Assembly (NCBI GenBank): GCA_965213675.1
Contig: OZ243916.1
Location: 2,880,001 to 2,944,000, forward strand
Length of the DNA: 64,000 nt
Source: an uncultured Candidatus Binatia bacterium
GTDB taxonomy: Bacteria > Desulfobacterota > Binatia > UBA9968 > JAJDTQ01
Reading direction: 5' to 3'
Part shown: piece after piece, positions 29,631-34,604 of the stretch
Layout: every line of letters begins with the position of its first letter
Numbering within the stretch: position 1 is the stretch's first letter
Program-made: the position numbers and the translations under genes
The notes under the pieces: generated by a model
Told to the model about the DNA's origin: nothing
The model's database searches: none
What the model saw: the letters and a program-made list of their open reading frames with translations, nothing else

Positions 29631-30434
29631 TCAAGCGCTCTCCAGAAGCACCGGTGTACCGACCCGCGCACCGAGACCGGACCGGGCATCGCCTTCGCAC
29701 CGGGAAATCTCCAGGCGCCCCCAGCTATTGAACAGGACGAGGTAGTTGCCGGCGCCGGCCGAGGCGTAGTTGGCGGACAGGCCCCGGATCACATGGCCGG
29801 CGATGCGCACGGACACGGACGCCGGGGCGAGCGCCTCGAGGTCTTCGCCGCGGATGTTGGTAGTCAGGTTGCCGAAACCGTCGATGTAGATCACCTCGCC
29901 GGCGATGCTGCCCGGATGCCGTCTTTGCGGTTCCGGCACCTTGAGGACTGCGAAACTTTCAACGGTTTGTCCCAGCTTCTCGGACGGCGCCCCGGCGGAC
30001 AAGTGGGCGGCGACGGGCGCGAACACGTCGCGGCCGTGGAACGTGGCGCTCGTGGGGTGCAGGTGGTAGTCCGGATTGGACAGGTGGATCACCCGGGCCA
30101 GCCGTTGCCGGCCCGCGGCGACGCTCAACAGCCCGTTGTCCGGGCCGATGTAACAGGCGCGGTCGGTCTCCACGAGAATGGGGCGCCGCCGGCTCCCCAC
30201 CCCTGGATCCACCACCGCCACGTGAATGGCGCCCGAGGGGAAGAAGTCCACCGCGGCCGCCAGCGCCAGCGCGCCGCCCGTTACGTCCTGCGGGGTCACG
30301 CCGTGGGTCAGGTCGATGATGGCGACCGCCGGGTTGATGGCGTGAATGACCCCCTTCATGATGCCCACGAAGGCGTCCCGGTAACCGAAATCGGTGGTGA
30401 GGGTGATGACACGTGCGGCCGGTGTGTTCGTCAT
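29631..30434 (-). CDS. SAM hydroxide adenosyltransferase / chlorinase-fluorinase (DUF62) family
   Basis: ITLTTDFG, VVDPGVGS, GPDNG, TFHGRDVFAP, IDGFGN. Confidence 0.92.
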   Translation of the reverse strand: MTNTPAARVITLTTDFGYRDAFVGIMKGVIHAINPAVAIIDLTHGVTPQDVTGGALALAAAVDFFPSGAIHVAVVDPGVGSRRRPILVETDRACYIGPDNGLLSVAAGRQRLARVIHLSNPDYHLHPTSATFHGRDVFAPVAAHLSAGAPSEKLGQTVESFAVLKVPEPQRRHPGSIAGEVIYIDGFGNLTTNIRGEDLEALAPASVSVRIAGHVIRGLSANYASAGAGNYLVLFNSWGRLEISRCEGDARSGLGARVGTPVLLESA

Positions 30435-30467
30435 CGGCTCAGGCAGTCCCTCGGGAAAGGCGCCGGG

Positions 30468-30902
30468 TCACGAGTCGCTCTCCATGGGGTAGCCCTTGTC
30501 GGTCCATCCAGGCAACCCCTCGTACAACACTCTCATGTTGCGGTAGCCCTGCTTGTGAAGAATCTGGTAGGCCAGACTGGCCAGGTGGCGGGGGCACTGT
30601 CAATAGAGTACGACGAGGCCCTCCTTCGGCACGGCGGCGCCTCGGTAGAAGGCGCCCAGCGGTATCGAGACGGCTCCCTTGATGTGCCCGTCCCCATAGC
30701 TTCGAGGTTGCCGCACGTCCACGATGGTGAGGGGTTTGCGGTCGAGGATATGCTCAACCAACGTGTCCACGTGGATGTACTGGATCGCGATCTTGTCCGA
30801 GGGCTCCACCTTGGCGTACTCAGGATAGCTCCCGGGGTCGCCCCAGGCGGATGCCGCGACCATCAGCAGCCACACGGTCAGAGCGATCCGGATTCGCCGC
30901 AT
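30468..30902 (-). CDS. Secreted rhodanese-domain protein with in-frame UGA (probable selenocysteine)
   Basis: Signal peptide, IVDVRQ...GHIKGA, VVLY-TGA(30602-30600)-QCPRHLA...GYRNMRVLYEGLPGWTDKGYP; domain continues 43 codons past TGA. Confidence 0.85.
30570..30582 (-). promoter_or_regulatory. Candidate bacterial SECIS hairpin
   Basis: GGCCA-GUC-UGGCC beginning 18 nt after the UGA, G-first apical loop. Confidence 0.5.
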
Positions 30903-31813
30903 TATCCGTCCTCCGCTTGCGGTTTCTGAACCCCCGCGAAGCCACTCCGGTCCGCCAGCGTTGCGGGTGTCAACACTCCGACGTGACGCTGACCCTTGAT
31001 GACCCACGTGGGATAGGAACGCACACCCGCCGCCAGGCACTTGGTTGCCGTGGGCCCGCTACGTCCGGCAGGACTGCACTCGATGTAGGGAATGCGCTTG
31101 GCGGAAACGCCGAACAAGGCTTTTTGACTCTCGCAGGCGGGGCACCAGAAGGCCCCGTACATCCTGGCGCCGACCTCCTCCAGGTGGACGGCCAGGCCTC
31201 GCAGCCAAGGGTCTTCGTTCGCCGAAGCGTTCACCGTGACGCCCGAATAGAAGACGAGATGCACCGCCAGCACCGCCACCGCGGCGGCGCCGAAGCTCGC
31301 GCCGAGCCAGGGTTTCCAGGGAACGCGGTGGCTGACCTGCGAAACCTGCGCCAGCGTCACGACGAAGATGGCGGCCAGGAGCGCCAGGGAAGTGAGGCAG
31401 TACGGACAGGCGGCCTCCAGCACGAACAGGGAGACGTAGGTCAGGTACAGGCTGTAGGCGACGCCGAAAAGCGAAACCGCGGCCAACGCCTTCCAACGCC
31501 GGCTGCGCCGCTTGATGAGCGCCGCGCCCGCCAGCACCGCGTACGTGAGAAACCCCCAAAGCGAGGTGGGCAGGCCCAACAGTTCCGACCAGCGGCTGTG
31601 GAGCACGACGTCACAGTCGGCCCCGGCCTCGCAGAAGGCGGCCTCCCCGCCCGACCACGCGGTGCCGGTCAGATAACCCGCCAGCACGAGCCCCACCGCG
31701 GCCAGTCCCAGCACCGGCCAGTTGGGCGTCGGCGGCGCAGGCGGCCTGGACCCCGCCGGGGCCTGCTGCGGCCGCGCGCCCCGCGCCCCTGTTTTCCTGG
31801 ATGCCTTGGCCAC
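30902..31813 (-). CDS. VKOR-thioredoxin-like fusion protein
   Basis: C..G.DCDVVLHSRWS, CPYC in TM region, MYGAFWCPAC and YIEC...C...SYPTW Trx domain; TAA overlaps next ATG. Confidence 0.92.
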   Translation of the reverse strand: MAKASRKTGARGARPQQAPAGSRPPAPPTPNWPVLGLAAVGLVLAGYLTGTAWSGGEAAFCEAGADCDVVLHSRWSELLGLPTSLWGFLTYAVLAGAALIKRRSRRWKALAAVSLFGVAYSLYLTYVSLFVLEAACPYCLTSLALLAAIFVVTLAQVSQVSHRVPWKPWLGASFGAAAVAVLAVHLVFYSGVTVNASANEDPWLRGLAVHLEEVGARMYGAFWCPACESQKALFGVSAKRIPYIECSPAGRSGPTATKCLAAGVRSYPTWVIKGQRHVGVLTPATLADRSGFAGVQKPQAEDG

Positions 31814-31972
31814 TGGTTCCTCCCTTGGGTCGGTCGGCGGCTGATGCCCGCCCGACGGATCGAGCCCATGTGAAACTTACCAATGCCGTGACGACAAGAC
31901 AAGAATGCGACGCTTCCATACCGTGTTTTCCGGACCCCTCTCGAAACGTGCTTCCCGCCGACCCCCCGGAAC

Positions 31973-32302
31973 GTCATTCCCGCCGTCCCCTGGTTCGTCA
32001 TTCCCGCGAAAGCGGGAATCCAGGCGGGGTAAGGCGGGGAATGCACTCGTTTCGCCCCTCTCCCCACCCCTGGATTCCCGCTTTCGCGGGAATGACGAAC
32101 CGGGGGACGGAATGACGAACCGGGGGACGGAACGACGAACCGGGGGACGGAACGACGAACCGGGGGACGGAACGACGAACCGGGGGACGGAACGACGAAC
32201 CGGGGGACGGAACGACGAACCGGGGGACGGAATGACGAACCGGGGGCGGAATGACGAACCGGGGGCGGAATGACGAACCGGGGGGCGGGAATGACGAACC
32301 GG
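31973..32302. repeat. REP doublet (31997-32096) followed by about 10 tandem 19-21-bp units
   Basis: Unit CGGGGGACGGAA(T/C)GACGAAC from 32101; contains the REP end GGAATGAC. Confidence 0.92.
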
Positions 32303-32313
32303 AAGGGCCGCCT

Positions 32314-32952
32314 TTACGCCTTTCCGGCCAGCAGGCTCCGGGCGTTGTCGCGCAGGCGCCGCAACGCGTGGGGATCGTTGCTGTTGTAGTAGCCGCGGAT
32401 CTCCCCGTCGCGGTCCACCAGCACGAAGCGCGAGCTGTGGAACACCACCGGGTCCGGGGTGGCGTCGTCCACCGGGGCGGCGCTCAGGCGGAAGCCGTCC
32501 TGGACGATGCGGCGGATCTGCGCCACGTCGCCGGTGAGGAACAGCCAGCGGTCCGGGTGGGCTCCGTAGCGCTCCGCGTACGCGGACAGCAAAGCCGGGG
32601 AATCGGTCAGCGGGTCCACGGTGATGGAAACCGAGCGGACATCGCCGTAGTCTTCCAGGTCGGCTTGCAGCGCGGCCATGGAACGGCTCTGCAGCGGGCA
32701 GGTGTCCTGGCACTTGGTGTAGATGAAGTCGGCGATCCACACGCGGCCGCGCAGGTCCCCGGCGGATACGGGCCTGCCGCTGCGTTCCACCAGGGAGAAG
32801 TCCGGCGCCGGACCGTAGCGCGCCAGTTCCTCCAGGGCGGGTTGCCGGGGCATCGTCCGAGGCGTGCGGAGTTGCTGGACGACGAGCCCCGCGAGGATGA
32901 CGAACAGCACCGATCCGACGGTCACCTGGATGGCGAAGCGTCGTTGCGTCAT
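32314..32952 (-). CDS. SCO family copper chaperone
   Basis: FIYTKCQDTCP, ITVDP, WLFLTG, HSSRFVLVD; N-terminal TM; start could be 32976. Confidence 0.9.
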   Translation of the reverse strand: MTQRRFAIQVTVGSVLFVILAGLVVQQLRTPRTMPRQPALEELARYGPAPDFSLVERSGRPVSAGDLRGRVWIADFIYTKCQDTCPLQSRSMAALQADLEDYGDVRSVSITVDPLTDSPALLSAYAERYGAHPDRWLFLTGDVAQIRRIVQDGFRLSAAPVDDATPDPVVFHSSRFVLVDRDGEIRGYYNSNDPHALRRLRDNARSLLAGKA

Positions 32953-33143
32953 GGTGTAGGCCTCATCCCGCACCACGGCCGGCTGGCATGGCCGGGGGCT
33001 GCTTGCATACCTGTCTGACCCTCAGCGTCGTGCCGATCCAAAGGACCGCGGTCCTGATGCCCGCGCGCACGCGACGGCCGGCCGGACGCGGTGCGCCGCA
33101 GGACCCATGCGAAACCGCAGAGCCTGTTCCGCGGTCACGAGGG

Positions 33144-34604
33144 CTAACCGGGCGGAATCTTCTGGAGCAGCCGGCCATCTTCGTATAGCTCGTAGCCCTT
33201 GATGAGCAGTTCGTAGCCGCGCCCGGGATGATCGCTCAAGTCGAGCAGTTCCAGATCCAGCACCACCACCGTCGTCACACCCGGCTTCACGTCGAACCCG
33301 AGGCGGATCGGCTTCACGGCGTTCTTGACCTGGCCCGGCGCTCCGGTTTTCGCAAGAATGCCACGGATTTCAGCCAACTGCAGGTCGACGGCCGCGAAAC
33401 GGCGCGGCGCCAGCGCTCCCCGGTACACCGTGGCGGCGGCCTTCCCGTCCTTGTAACGGGTCAGTTCCATGCGGTCCAATCGGGGCGCCAGTTCGATCCA
33501 TCCCGGATCGGAGGAGCGCAGGCGCCCATGGGGCGCCAGCCGCAGCTTCCCCAGGCGCAAATCCACGCTGCGGAAGTCGTCGATGGCGTTGCGGTGGTCC
33601 TTGACCCGCACCTCCAGGGTCCCCCGCGCCTGCGCCTGGACCCGTGCCCGCGCGGGTGTCCCGCCGTTCTCGCCGGGGAACCTGTCCATCGGGTAGAACT
33701 GGTAGGTCACGTGGAACGCGCCGTGCTCGCCCGGCGTGTCGTAGTCCACGCGGAACACGAGCGGAAGTTCCTTCTCCTGGCCGGGTTCAAGGACCTGCCG
33801 CAGAAAGCAGAAACACTGGATGATGTCCAGGTACCTGGCGGCCGCTTCCCTGGGCGTGTCCACGTGGCGCGCCTTGGCGGTGACGGTCCGGTCCGACAGG
33901 TTGCGCGCGCGGTAGGCGGCGTGCAGGGTTTCCCCCGGCTGCGCCAGCACCATCTCCTGCACCGGCTCGAAGGCCCACGGAAGCCCTTCCTTGACCTCGG
34001 CGTGGAAGAACACCCGCACCGCGTCGCTCCAGTTGCGGAACACCGTCCAACGGCCGTCCTCCTTCAGAAGCTCCAGCGATTCTTCCCCGCTGACCACCGG
34101 CAAGCTGCCGGTGCGCGCCATTTCGGCCACCGCATCGAGGATCTGCCGGCGCTGCTCCAGCGTCAGCCGGTTCAGCTCGTCGGGGTCGAACCCGGCCAGG
34201 AGCTTGTTCAGTTCGGGAGAATTGGCGTCCGGGAGGCGGATGTCGAAACGGACCGTGGCGCTGTCGCCGCGGGTGGTGAACGTAAGGGGTCCCACCTCGA
34301 TCCGCTGCGCCAGACCGCGGGCCAGTTCCGCGGCCGCGCCGGTAAAGGAGGGGTTTTCGCGCAGGTAGTCCGCCGCGCTCTTGGCCGCCTTGTCGTGCTC
34401 CGAGACGTACCGGTAAGCCTCGGCGTAGTCCTGGGCGTACACCGCCTTGAGATAGCGCGACACCAGGTCGCGCGCTGCTTCGGCGTCCGCCTGAGCCGCG
34501 GCCGTGCCTACCCAGAGCAAGACAGCGATGGCCGCCGCGGCCAACCGGCCAACCTGGGTCCGGGGACATATCTTGTACTGATTGAAGTTCATAACCGCCT
34601 TCAC
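33144..34604 (-). CDS. Multidomain secreted protein with central CtaG/Cox11 copper-binding domain
   Basis: LPWAFEPVQ...PGET...YRARN...IQCFCF...QVLEPG...LPLVFRVD; extra N- and C-terminal domains. Confidence 0.8.
   Translation of the reverse strand: MKAVMNFNQYKICPRTQVGRLAAAAIAVLLWVGTAAAQADAEAARDLVSRYLKAVYAQDYAEAYRYVSEHDKAAKSAADYLRENPSFTGAAAELARGLAQRIEVGPLTFTTRGDSATVRFDIRLPDANSPELNKLLAGFDPDELNRLTLEQRRQILDAVAEMARTGSLPVVSGEESLELLKEDGRWTVFRNWSDAVRVFFHAEVKEGLPWAFEPVQEMVLAQPGETLHAAYRARNLSDRTVTAKARHVDTPREAAARYLDIIQCFCFLRQVLEPGQEKELPLVFRVDYDTPGEHGAFHVTYQFYPMDRFPGENGGTPARARVQAQARGTLEVRVKDHRNAIDDFRSVDLRLGKLRLAPHGRLRSSDPGWIELAPRLDRMELTRYKDGKAAATVYRGALAPRRFAAVDLQLAEIRGILAKTGAPGQVKNAVKPIRLGFDVKPGVTTVVVLDLELLDLSDHPGRGYELLIKGYELYEDGRLLQKIPPG

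Follow-up and report, generated by a model that had tools for sequence, protein, structure and literature searches.

The stretch of DNA considered here, referred to as the window, comprises 64,000 nucleotides (positions 2880001-2944000 of contig C1) from an uncultured Candidatus Binatia bacterium. Contig C1 accounts for 3.97 Mb of a 4.5-Mb assembly, which is scored at 97.7% completeness and 8% contamination. On its minus strand the window carries a gene for a predicted periplasmic rhodanese in which an in-frame TGA, very likely read as selenocysteine (Sec, U), takes the place of the catalytic cysteine and is followed two residues later by a cysteine, giving a U-x-C pair. The parts of this gene are the following:

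30468..30902, minus strand: candidate Sec-rhodanese gene, 144 codons plus stop, translated with TGA as U
30902-30900, minus strand: start codon ATG
30840..30902, minus strand: putative signal peptide, about residues 1-21, MRRIRIALTVWLLMVAASAWG, assigned by eye from the n-region RRIR, a hydrophobic core and ASA
30602-30600, minus strand: in-frame TGA, codon 101, following ...KEGLVVLY and read as Sec101
30594..30596, minus strand: TGC codon of Cys103, the second residue of the U-x-C pair
30570..30582, minus strand: hairpin GGCCA-GUC-UGGCC, resembling a selenocysteine insertion sequence (SECIS) and beginning 20 nt past the U of the UGA
30470-30468, minus strand: terminal TGA

An earlier note on this DNA had claimed that the open reading frame ending in VVLY-TGA continues beyond the TGA to complete a rhodanese domain, and this is indeed the case. 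The frame past TGA-101 reads QCPRHLASLAYQILHKQGYRNMRVLYEGLPGWTDKGYPMESDS up to the second TGA, and the full translation matches the Pfam Rhodanese domain (PF00581) with residues 50-135, a match that spans the TGA (53.8 bits, cut-off 22.2). HMMER alignments place residue 101 on the Cys that opens the active-site loops of the solved rhodaneses 3tp9 (VYCRTGGR) and 6mxv (FYCGGGFR), in agreement with the note, which had put the TGA at the catalytic Cys of a U-x-C motif; Sec101 and Cys103 are read directly from the translation, in the loop Y-U-Q-C-P-R-H. An AF2 model built with 22 family sequences has the rhodanese fold, with a mean pLDDT of 85 and values above 90 within the domain, and Foldseek gives a probability of 1.0 to many rhodaneses, including 3tp9, 6mxv, 3nhv and 3ilm. 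The signal peptide, also part of the earlier proposal, can be recognized by eye, and the model shows a helix at residues 4-17, with a pLDDT below 60 for residues 1-30. The N-terminus is alike in all 15 Sec forms described below.

The machinery for Sec insertion is complete. The genes selA (517.7 bits), selB (wing domain matched) and selD and a gene for tRNA-Sec are all located on contig C1, where selD (G000:C1:2717193-2718491, outside the window) directly follows selA and selB and itself contains one in-frame TGA, read KAAGUAAK. UGA-101 would accordingly be decoded as Sec by the SelA, SelB, SelD and tRNA-Sec of the host, guided by the short hairpin 20 nt downstream. A second tRNA-Sec gene is found on a small contig (G000:C4:3174-3268) and may belong to another strain or organism, given the contamination score of the assembly.

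Not only the Sec genes but also the pairs of Cys and UGA homologues anticipated in the earlier note were found. A protein search returned 41 homologues, 36 of which are only 100-106 aa long and reach no more than 69% coverage of the query; the 8 short entries that were read all end in -(V/L)VLY, so that gene callers evidently stop at the same codon in many genomes. At the DNA level, a TGA is present at the aligned codon in 14 homologues from other genomes or metagenomes, each with an intact and conserved frame after the TGA. Together with the window, this brings the number of Sec forms with U-x-C-P to 15 (the window, L007-L015, L017, L018, L086, L087 and L089). They come from at least two groups of phylum rank: L007-L013, which bear the labels Binatia, Thermodesulfobacteriota or Deltaproteobacteria, show 72-85% identity, and L014, L015, L017, L018, L086, L087 and L089, of Rokubacteria/Methylomirabilota type, about 45-57%. 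The Sec column holds a Cys in two Rokubacteria-type sequences (L016 and L088), in P0023, P0132 and L019-L025, and in a group of Myxococcota with the motif CACPHH; the codon is TGC in L016, L088, L019-L025 and P0023. In a survey of 121 genomes of the class, eight contain a match at E<=1e-15, and in six of these eight one TGA lies inside the match.

The 40 codons past the TGA evolve as coding sequence and, judged from their substitutions, under purifying selection. Between the window and L011, 27 of them are identical, 9 differ synonymously and 4 non-synonymously; against the more distant L014 the numbers are 12, 13 and 15, respectively. This coding signature excludes a nonsense mutation for practical purposes.

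The hairpin GGCCA-GUC-UGGCC is present at 30582-30570, as the earlier note had described it, and presumably resembles the apex of the SECIS of E. coli fdhF. The same hairpin is found in 12 of the 15 Sec forms, with GUC, GUU, GUA or GGU as loop. Third-position identity, taken over 14 Sec forms, peaks at codons 105-111, which the hairpin covers (0.83 versus a gene mean of 0.58, the top value among 122 windows of seven codons). At the hairpin codons all Sec forms read YTG GCC AGT YTG GCC; the Cys forms that encode the same peptide HHLASLAY (n=2, L016 and L088) have CTC GCG AGC CTC GCC there, which leaves a 4-bp stem with a GCC loop. GUC is also the triloop of the selD hairpin of this genome (GGUGCAG-GUC-CUGCACC, 29 nt after the UGA), and peroxiredoxin (Prx)-, glutaredoxin (Grx)- and TlpA-like Sec genes of the same genome have GUN-triloop hairpins 13-22 nt past the UGA.

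Several observations speak against a SECIS at this place. The hairpin has only 5 bp, and it offers no covariation because its stem is invariant. In L009, L010 and L012 it takes the form GUCCA-GGU-UGGCU, with one pair broken and one turned into G-U, although these three can be drawn with a different, longer stem in which one U is bulged, GCCACCU...AGG(U)UGGC. The 63 nt past the UGA fold no better than shuffled sequences (z -0.19, with 82 of 200 shuffles folding as well), and an Rfam scan of positions 30300-31000 gave no SECIS family at E<=10 but only four chance-level hits. The hairpin is nevertheless likely to be the SECIS, a view taken because of its conservation across the aligned genes, since stability alone gives it no support.

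The two Cys forms just mentioned, L016 (2893-3396) and L088 (1230-1733), branch from within the Sec clade (99/85 with L014), no longer have the GUY loop and differ at four synonymous sites of the hairpin. Judged from the aligned codons, this looks like a replacement of Sec by Cys followed by decay of the SECIS.

If the TGA were instead a nonsense mutation or a true stop, the gene would yield a truncated product of 100 residues or none at all. Gene callers do stop there, leaving 36 of the 41 database entries truncated, and the hairpin is short, thermodynamically unremarkable and without an Rfam match. The TGA is, however, shared by 15 sequences that span at least two groups of phylum rank, the frame behind it is intact and under purifying selection, the synonymous sites of the hairpin are constrained, the genome has the complete Sec machinery and, according to the model, truncation would remove the active-site loop together with two structural elements of the domain. 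This explanation, which we regard as very improbable, is already contradicted by the comparative data. It is thus highly probable in our view that the window gene is a genuine Sec-rhodanese of the UxC type, and its identity taken alone comes close to certainty.

Rhodaneses of the catalytic sulfurtransferase type have a six-residue active-site loop, C-R-x-G-x-[R/T]. The loop of the window protein, U-Q-C-P-R-H-L-A-S, departs from this pattern in having no Gly at +3, and it is one residue longer than the loops of 3tp9 and 6mxv, as the HMMER alignment needs a one-residue gap. The family motif around Sec101 is Y-U-x-C-P-[R/H]-H. Cys103 is invariant in alignments A1 and A3, and His106 of the C/U-x-C-P-H-H motif is present in at least 90% of the alignment rows; the window protein has R, not H, at position 105. 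A search of protein clusters with the natural Cys homologue P0023 returned generic rhodanese clusters only. In P0175 (157 aa), a close homologue, G-N-R replaces U-x-C (VVFYGNRPRHLASSAY), so that both redox residues are lost and the remainder of the family signature is kept.

Sec-containing rhodaneses have been known since 2005-2007. Five rhodanese-like selenoprotein forms are distinguished in the accessible part of a 2026 inventory (PMC13188914), namely UxxS, two UxxG forms, CxU (NF041203) and TsoB (UxxxxU), and a UxU form in a rhodanese-related family was reported from Olavius symbionts in 2007, again according to the accessible text (PMC1976440). Neither a UxC rhodanese nor VKOR appears in the tables of the inventory (PMC13188914), from which the UxC subtype is therefore absent as far as these tables go, the known class being that of the Sec rhodaneses. 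In the accessible main text of the deep-Sep study (PMC12013277) rhodanese is not mentioned, and our literature search found nothing linking selenoprotein, rhodanese and VKOR.

The best match in NCBIfam is NF041203, 'rhodanese_LYCAU', at 50.6 bits, well below its cut-off of 115. With this CxU family, form 3 of the inventory, the window protein shares a small rhodanese domain and a [C/U]-x-[C/U]-P motif directly after a strand ending in LY. The arrangement is the mirror image, however, with Sec at the first, canonical catalytic position and Cys at the third, and the loop goes on as P-[R/H]-H-L-A-S in the window family and as P-x-E-H-S-S-A in the NF041203 type. In the UxU form of the Olavius symbionts, Sec can occupy the first position as well, as reported in the text available (PMC1976440). 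Forms 1, 2 and 4 (UxxS and UxxG) also have Sec in place of the catalytic Cys of the rhodanese domain, but, going by the motifs printed in the inventory, they keep the ordinary sulfurtransferase loop and have no Cys at +2, which sets them apart (PMC13188914).

To TsoB (NF045694) the window protein has only a weak match (30.3 bits versus a cut-off of 805). TsoB is a fusion with a DsbD-like module, DsbD being reductive, and has the motif UxxxxU, whereas the window gene is a separate gene behind an oxidative VKOR-thioredoxin (VKOR-Trx) fusion and has the motif UxC. Common to both is a Sec rhodanese domain tied to a membrane thiol-disulfide electron-transfer module, as far as TsoB is described in the accessible part of the inventory (PMC13188914).

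CxU-P relatives were among the sequences fetched (L026, L029, L030, L032-L035 and L060), with Sec at the position equivalent to Cys103, and so was a C-x4-U group. A tree built from 68 domain sequences places the UxC forms in one clade (support 95/89) of 17 rows, consisting of 14 UxC forms, one long-branch row and, nested among them, the Cys forms L016 and L088. This clade adjoins the Myxococcota CACPHH group, and a branch with 96/93 support separates it from the CxU forms. Being midpoint-rooted and based on 85 columns, this tree does not fix the order of events. Two of the CxU loci, one from a Pyrinomonadaceae and one from a Chloroflexia member, contain tandem pairs of CxU-type Sec-rhodanese genes (L026, 2364-2723 and 3001-3279; L034, 2512-2805 and 3007-3249). 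In addition, multi-domain rhodaneses with a TGA five residues past the loop Cys (YCGGPTU-x-SP) were seen in Nitrospirota and Desulfobacterota loci (L038-L050, L056, L064 and L067, at several places each); this group may correspond to a selenoprotein form that is already listed.

Around the start of the gene and upstream of it, the following features are located on the minus strand of the window:

30909..30914, minus strand: ribosome-binding site GGAGGA, 6 nt 5' of the rhodanese ATG, within the 3' end of the VKOR-Trx gene
30900..30904, minus strand: stop/start overlap TAATG, in which the VKOR stop TAA (30904-30902) shares its A with the rhodanese ATG
30902..31813, minus strand: VKOR-thioredoxin fusion, 303 aa, with a Cys61/Cys67 loop, CPYC in the membrane domain and WCPAC in the Trx-like domain
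32314..32976, minus strand: SCO1/SenC copper chaperone, upstream neighbour (Pfam, 100.6 bits)
33144..34604, minus strand: CtaG/Cox11 plus DUF4382 protein, upstream neighbour (Pfam and synteny)

The overlap of the ATG with the stop codon of a VKOR-Trx gene, to which the earlier note had drawn attention, is thus seen as described. The upstream gene is a VKOR by Pfam (98.1 bits) and matches the Synechococcus structures 4nv2 and 3kp9 over its full length (E 3e-49, residues 37-292). Like this Synechococcus fusion, it has all catalytic cysteines conserved, and C61, C67, C136, C139, C224 and C227 are invariant among its relatives (alignment A2); for the Synechococcus fusion no dedicated downstream rhodanese is reported in the literature searched. 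In all eight related genomes the stop codon of VKOR-Trx and the start codon of the rhodanese overlap, as TAATG in the window and as TGATG in the seven related loci (7/7). In L007-L013, A-G-rich boxes are placed similarly to the GGAGGA of the window but a few nt further upstream, as GGAGGG or, in L009, L010 and L012, as GGCAGG or GGCAAGG.

Gene order in the seven related loci is CtaG/Cox11-DUF4382, SCO1, VKOR-Trx, rhodanese, SAM_HAT and dCMP deaminase, with SCO1 and CtaG seen in six of them (L007 and L009-L013), the flank of L008 being too short. In L007 and L011 the gene after the rhodanese encodes a GST-like protein on the opposite strand, so that the rhodanese ends the transcription unit in these two. 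Between SCO1 and VKOR-Trx the window contains two tandem arrays, one of a 20-nt unit (10.8 copies, 97% matches; 32089-32302) and one of a 24-nt unit (2.6 copies; 31945-32007). Together they fill this gap, which measures only about 70-130 nt in related loci, so that the array has the look of an insertion particular to the present genome.

A mechanism can be proposed from this arrangement. Sec101 and Cys103 would form a reversible selenenylsulfide, which the periplasmic Trx-like domain of the VKOR fusion would oxidise, passing the electrons on to quinone; in its oxidised state the rhodanese would then accept two electrons from its substrate, be it a thiol, sulfide or sulfane sulfur, bound in the anion-binding cradle of the rhodanese loop. 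Fusion to a dihaem cytochrome c would give the Cys-Cys version of Myxococcota an alternative electron acceptor. In both contexts, VKOR-Trx and cytochrome c, the rhodanese domain would stand upstream of an electron acceptor. That the pair is oxidised via VKOR-Trx, with electrons going to quinone, appears quite possible from the sequences, although we hold it with some reserve.

E. coli PspE offers a point of comparison. It is likewise an exported single rhodanese domain, and it has a single Cys, in the loop CNAGRQS. The match to the window protein has an E-value of 1.6e-6 and 28.3 bits against a cut-off of 102, and PspE lacks both Sec and the second Cys. According to the accessible text of the study concerned, PspE and DsbC together can partly replace DsbA/DsbB, and VKOR is the equivalent of DsbB (PMC5403849); by analogy, PspE may be regarded as a precedent for a periplasmic rhodanese feeding disulfide formation.

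A number of findings weigh against oxidation through VKOR-Trx. The fusion is the only VKOR of this genome and no DsbB was found there, at 97.7% completeness, so that VKOR-Trx is probably a general oxidase. Four genomes of the same genus without a rhodanese match retain VKOR, and selA is present there too; two of these, G065 and G089, keep the order CtaG-SCO1-VKOR-SAM_HAT without the rhodanese although selA is present, as seen in loci L168 and L171, where nothing stands in its place. No VKOR was found in the flanks of the non-Binatia loci, that is, of the Rokubacteria-type Sec forms and the Cys forms. A resolving Cys beside Sec would equally suit a reductase in need of a reductant rather than an oxidant. 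Finally, metal-related neighbours (SCO1, Cox11, CopC, NicO/DUF1007) and His-rich tails point to another role.

A dedicated redox pair of VKOR-Trx and rhodanese is thus not borne out by co-occurrence beyond one lineage, where the two are adjacent in all eight Binatia-type genomes (8/8). At the level of gene arrangement the coupling is real in that lineage, as far as the gene maps tell. Since the VKOR locus persists in same-genus genomes without it, the rhodanese is, on the same comparison, an accessory gene behind a housekeeping VKOR-Trx and not an obligatory partner to it. Of the periplasmic Sec/Cys redox or S/Se-transfer pair with VKOR-Trx envisaged in the earlier note, the pair itself remains plausible, whereas the tie to VKOR in particular is weaker than adjacency suggests.

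Outside the Binatia type the surroundings differ, the neighbours of the Rokubacteria and Myxococcota forms not being conserved. In L087 the rhodanese gene is followed by a two-domain rhodanese and, two genes downstream, by CopC, and L014 adjoins NicO and DUF1007. The three Myxococcota Cys forms tested by Pfam are dihaem cytochrome c proteins, with 2x cytochrome c and a C-terminal rhodanese domain; P0099 and P0138 have CxxCH motifs. Two of the cytochrome c fusions, L019 and L023, end in His-rich C-terminal tails after the rhodanese (HGHSHDGHDHGHGHAH; HDDHSGHAH), the composition of which hints at metal binding. A search aimed at fused forms gave no longer homologue at E<=1e-8, which is weak evidence, and a profile search of 1.84 billion representatives yielded no new fusion partner among the 7 matches read from the best 150, which are mostly multi-domain rhodaneses; the informative ones among these 7 were single-domain Cys forms and cytochrome c fusions only.

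A different function would be that of a sulfur or selenium transferase, in which, in the manner of ordinary rhodaneses, sulfane sulfur or selenium is bound to Sec101 as an adduct (Se-S or Se-Se), the role of Cys103 is limited to tuning or protecting the site, and adjacency to VKOR-Trx reflects co-expression of envelope proteins without electron transfer. The rhodanese fold and Pfam match would fit such an enzyme, as would the PspE match (E 1.6e-6), the two-domain rhodanese that follows the gene in L087, a VKOR that is housekeeping and independent of the rhodanese, and the thiosulfate sulfurtransferases and persulfide-handling domains that come closest to the window protein among solved structures. 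The loop, however, lacks C-R-x-G-x-[R/T] and exceeds that of 3tp9 and 6mxv by one residue; a second Cys that never varies in the alignments and is itself the Sec site in the sister clade favours a two-residue redox pair, and pure sulfur transfer leaves no obvious role for the dihaem cytochrome c fusions. We consider a transferase rather unlikely.

The metal-related neighbours raise the further question of whether the protein handles a metal, probably copper; Sec101, Cys103 and His106 would then act as periplasmic ligands of Cu(I) or of some other soft metal, in the service of SCO1 and Cox11. CtaG/Cox11, SCO1, VKOR and rhodanese are codirectional in six of the seven related loci, CopC and NicO/DUF1007 occur near the gene in L087 and L014, His106 of the C/U-x-C-P-H-H motif is kept in at least 90% of rows, and the tails of L019 and L023 are rich in His. 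To our knowledge, no rhodanese domain binds copper, which counts against this role, as do the R at position 105 of the window protein, the unconserved neighbours in Rokubacteria and Myxococcota, and the CtaG-SCO1-VKOR synteny that is kept without the rhodanese. Selenoproteins with metal-binding Sec/Cys sites do exist in the accessible part of the 2026 inventory, e.g. MbdU and the SO_0444 UxC transporter (PMC13188914). Metal handling nevertheless seems improbable. The tie to SCO and CtaG suggested by the earlier note thus stands as a conserved neighbourhood (6/7 loci), whereas its persistence without the rhodanese means that it is no evidence of a specific copper link.

A broader suggestion goes beyond oxidation of the window protein by VKOR-Trx. 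The [U/C]-x-C rhodanese domains could constitute an unrecognised periplasmic two-electron oxidoreductase module with lineage-specific electron sinks, into which Sec was recruited independently at either position; this is a doubtful proposition at present. If true, the module would do with a rhodanese fold what DsbA or Mia40 does, or would act as a sulfide or thiol dehydrogenase that needs no flavin. Its sinks would be quinone via VKOR-Trx in Binatia and the fused dihaem cytochrome c in Myxococcota, and the independent recruitments of Sec would be represented by the UxC window family and the CxU sister clade.

The same genome contains further selenoprotein candidates. When all of it was scanned for hairpins with a GUN triloop 18-40 nt past a TGA, 2379 hairpins and 246 candidates were obtained, most of the latter being spurious open frames of a GC-rich genome, so that only lookalikes of known selenoproteins were kept. 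A second Sec-rhodanese is encoded at G000:C1:1598047-1600410, a two-domain SseA-like protein with TYUQGGIR, which is the ordinary UxxG form. Five other candidate selenoprotein genes, whose family names were assigned by eye from motifs, are:

G000:C1:443038-443463: Grx-like (GUPPC)
G000:C1:574066-574566: peroxiredoxin (PGUT)
G000:C1:2958074-2958688: TlpA/Prx-like (UYNC)
G000:C1:3452890-3453447: OsmC-like (GFULLT)
G000:C1:1241293-1241904: GLGAUGSC protein

In addition, two near-identical open frames (G000:C1:1069141-1069725 and 1048704-1049192) contain an in-frame TGA (…LTGVLGU…IAASACCAAVPG) followed by a long hairpin; they may represent a repeat rather than a gene, since the translation upstream looks non-coding.

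The advance made here is an incremental one, as Sec rhodaneses were already known and the function is proposed from sequence. Beside the five rhodanese selenoprotein forms given in the accessible part of the 2026 inventory (PMC13188914), UxC constitutes a sixth arrangement. The subfamily is filed in databases as "rhodanese-like" or "SseA" fragments of about 100 residues without an active site, as in 36 of the 41 homologues. Taken together, UxC, CxU and UxU indicate that either position of one C-x-C motif can carry selenium, as would be expected for a redox pair but not for a lone sulfur carrier. In this organism the Sec-rhodanese gene is linked to the sole disulfide generator that is coupled to quinone, and Cys relatives of the rhodanese occur as fusions with c-type cytochromes; for a family without a function, these links to VKOR-Trx and cytochrome c would provide a concrete route to one.

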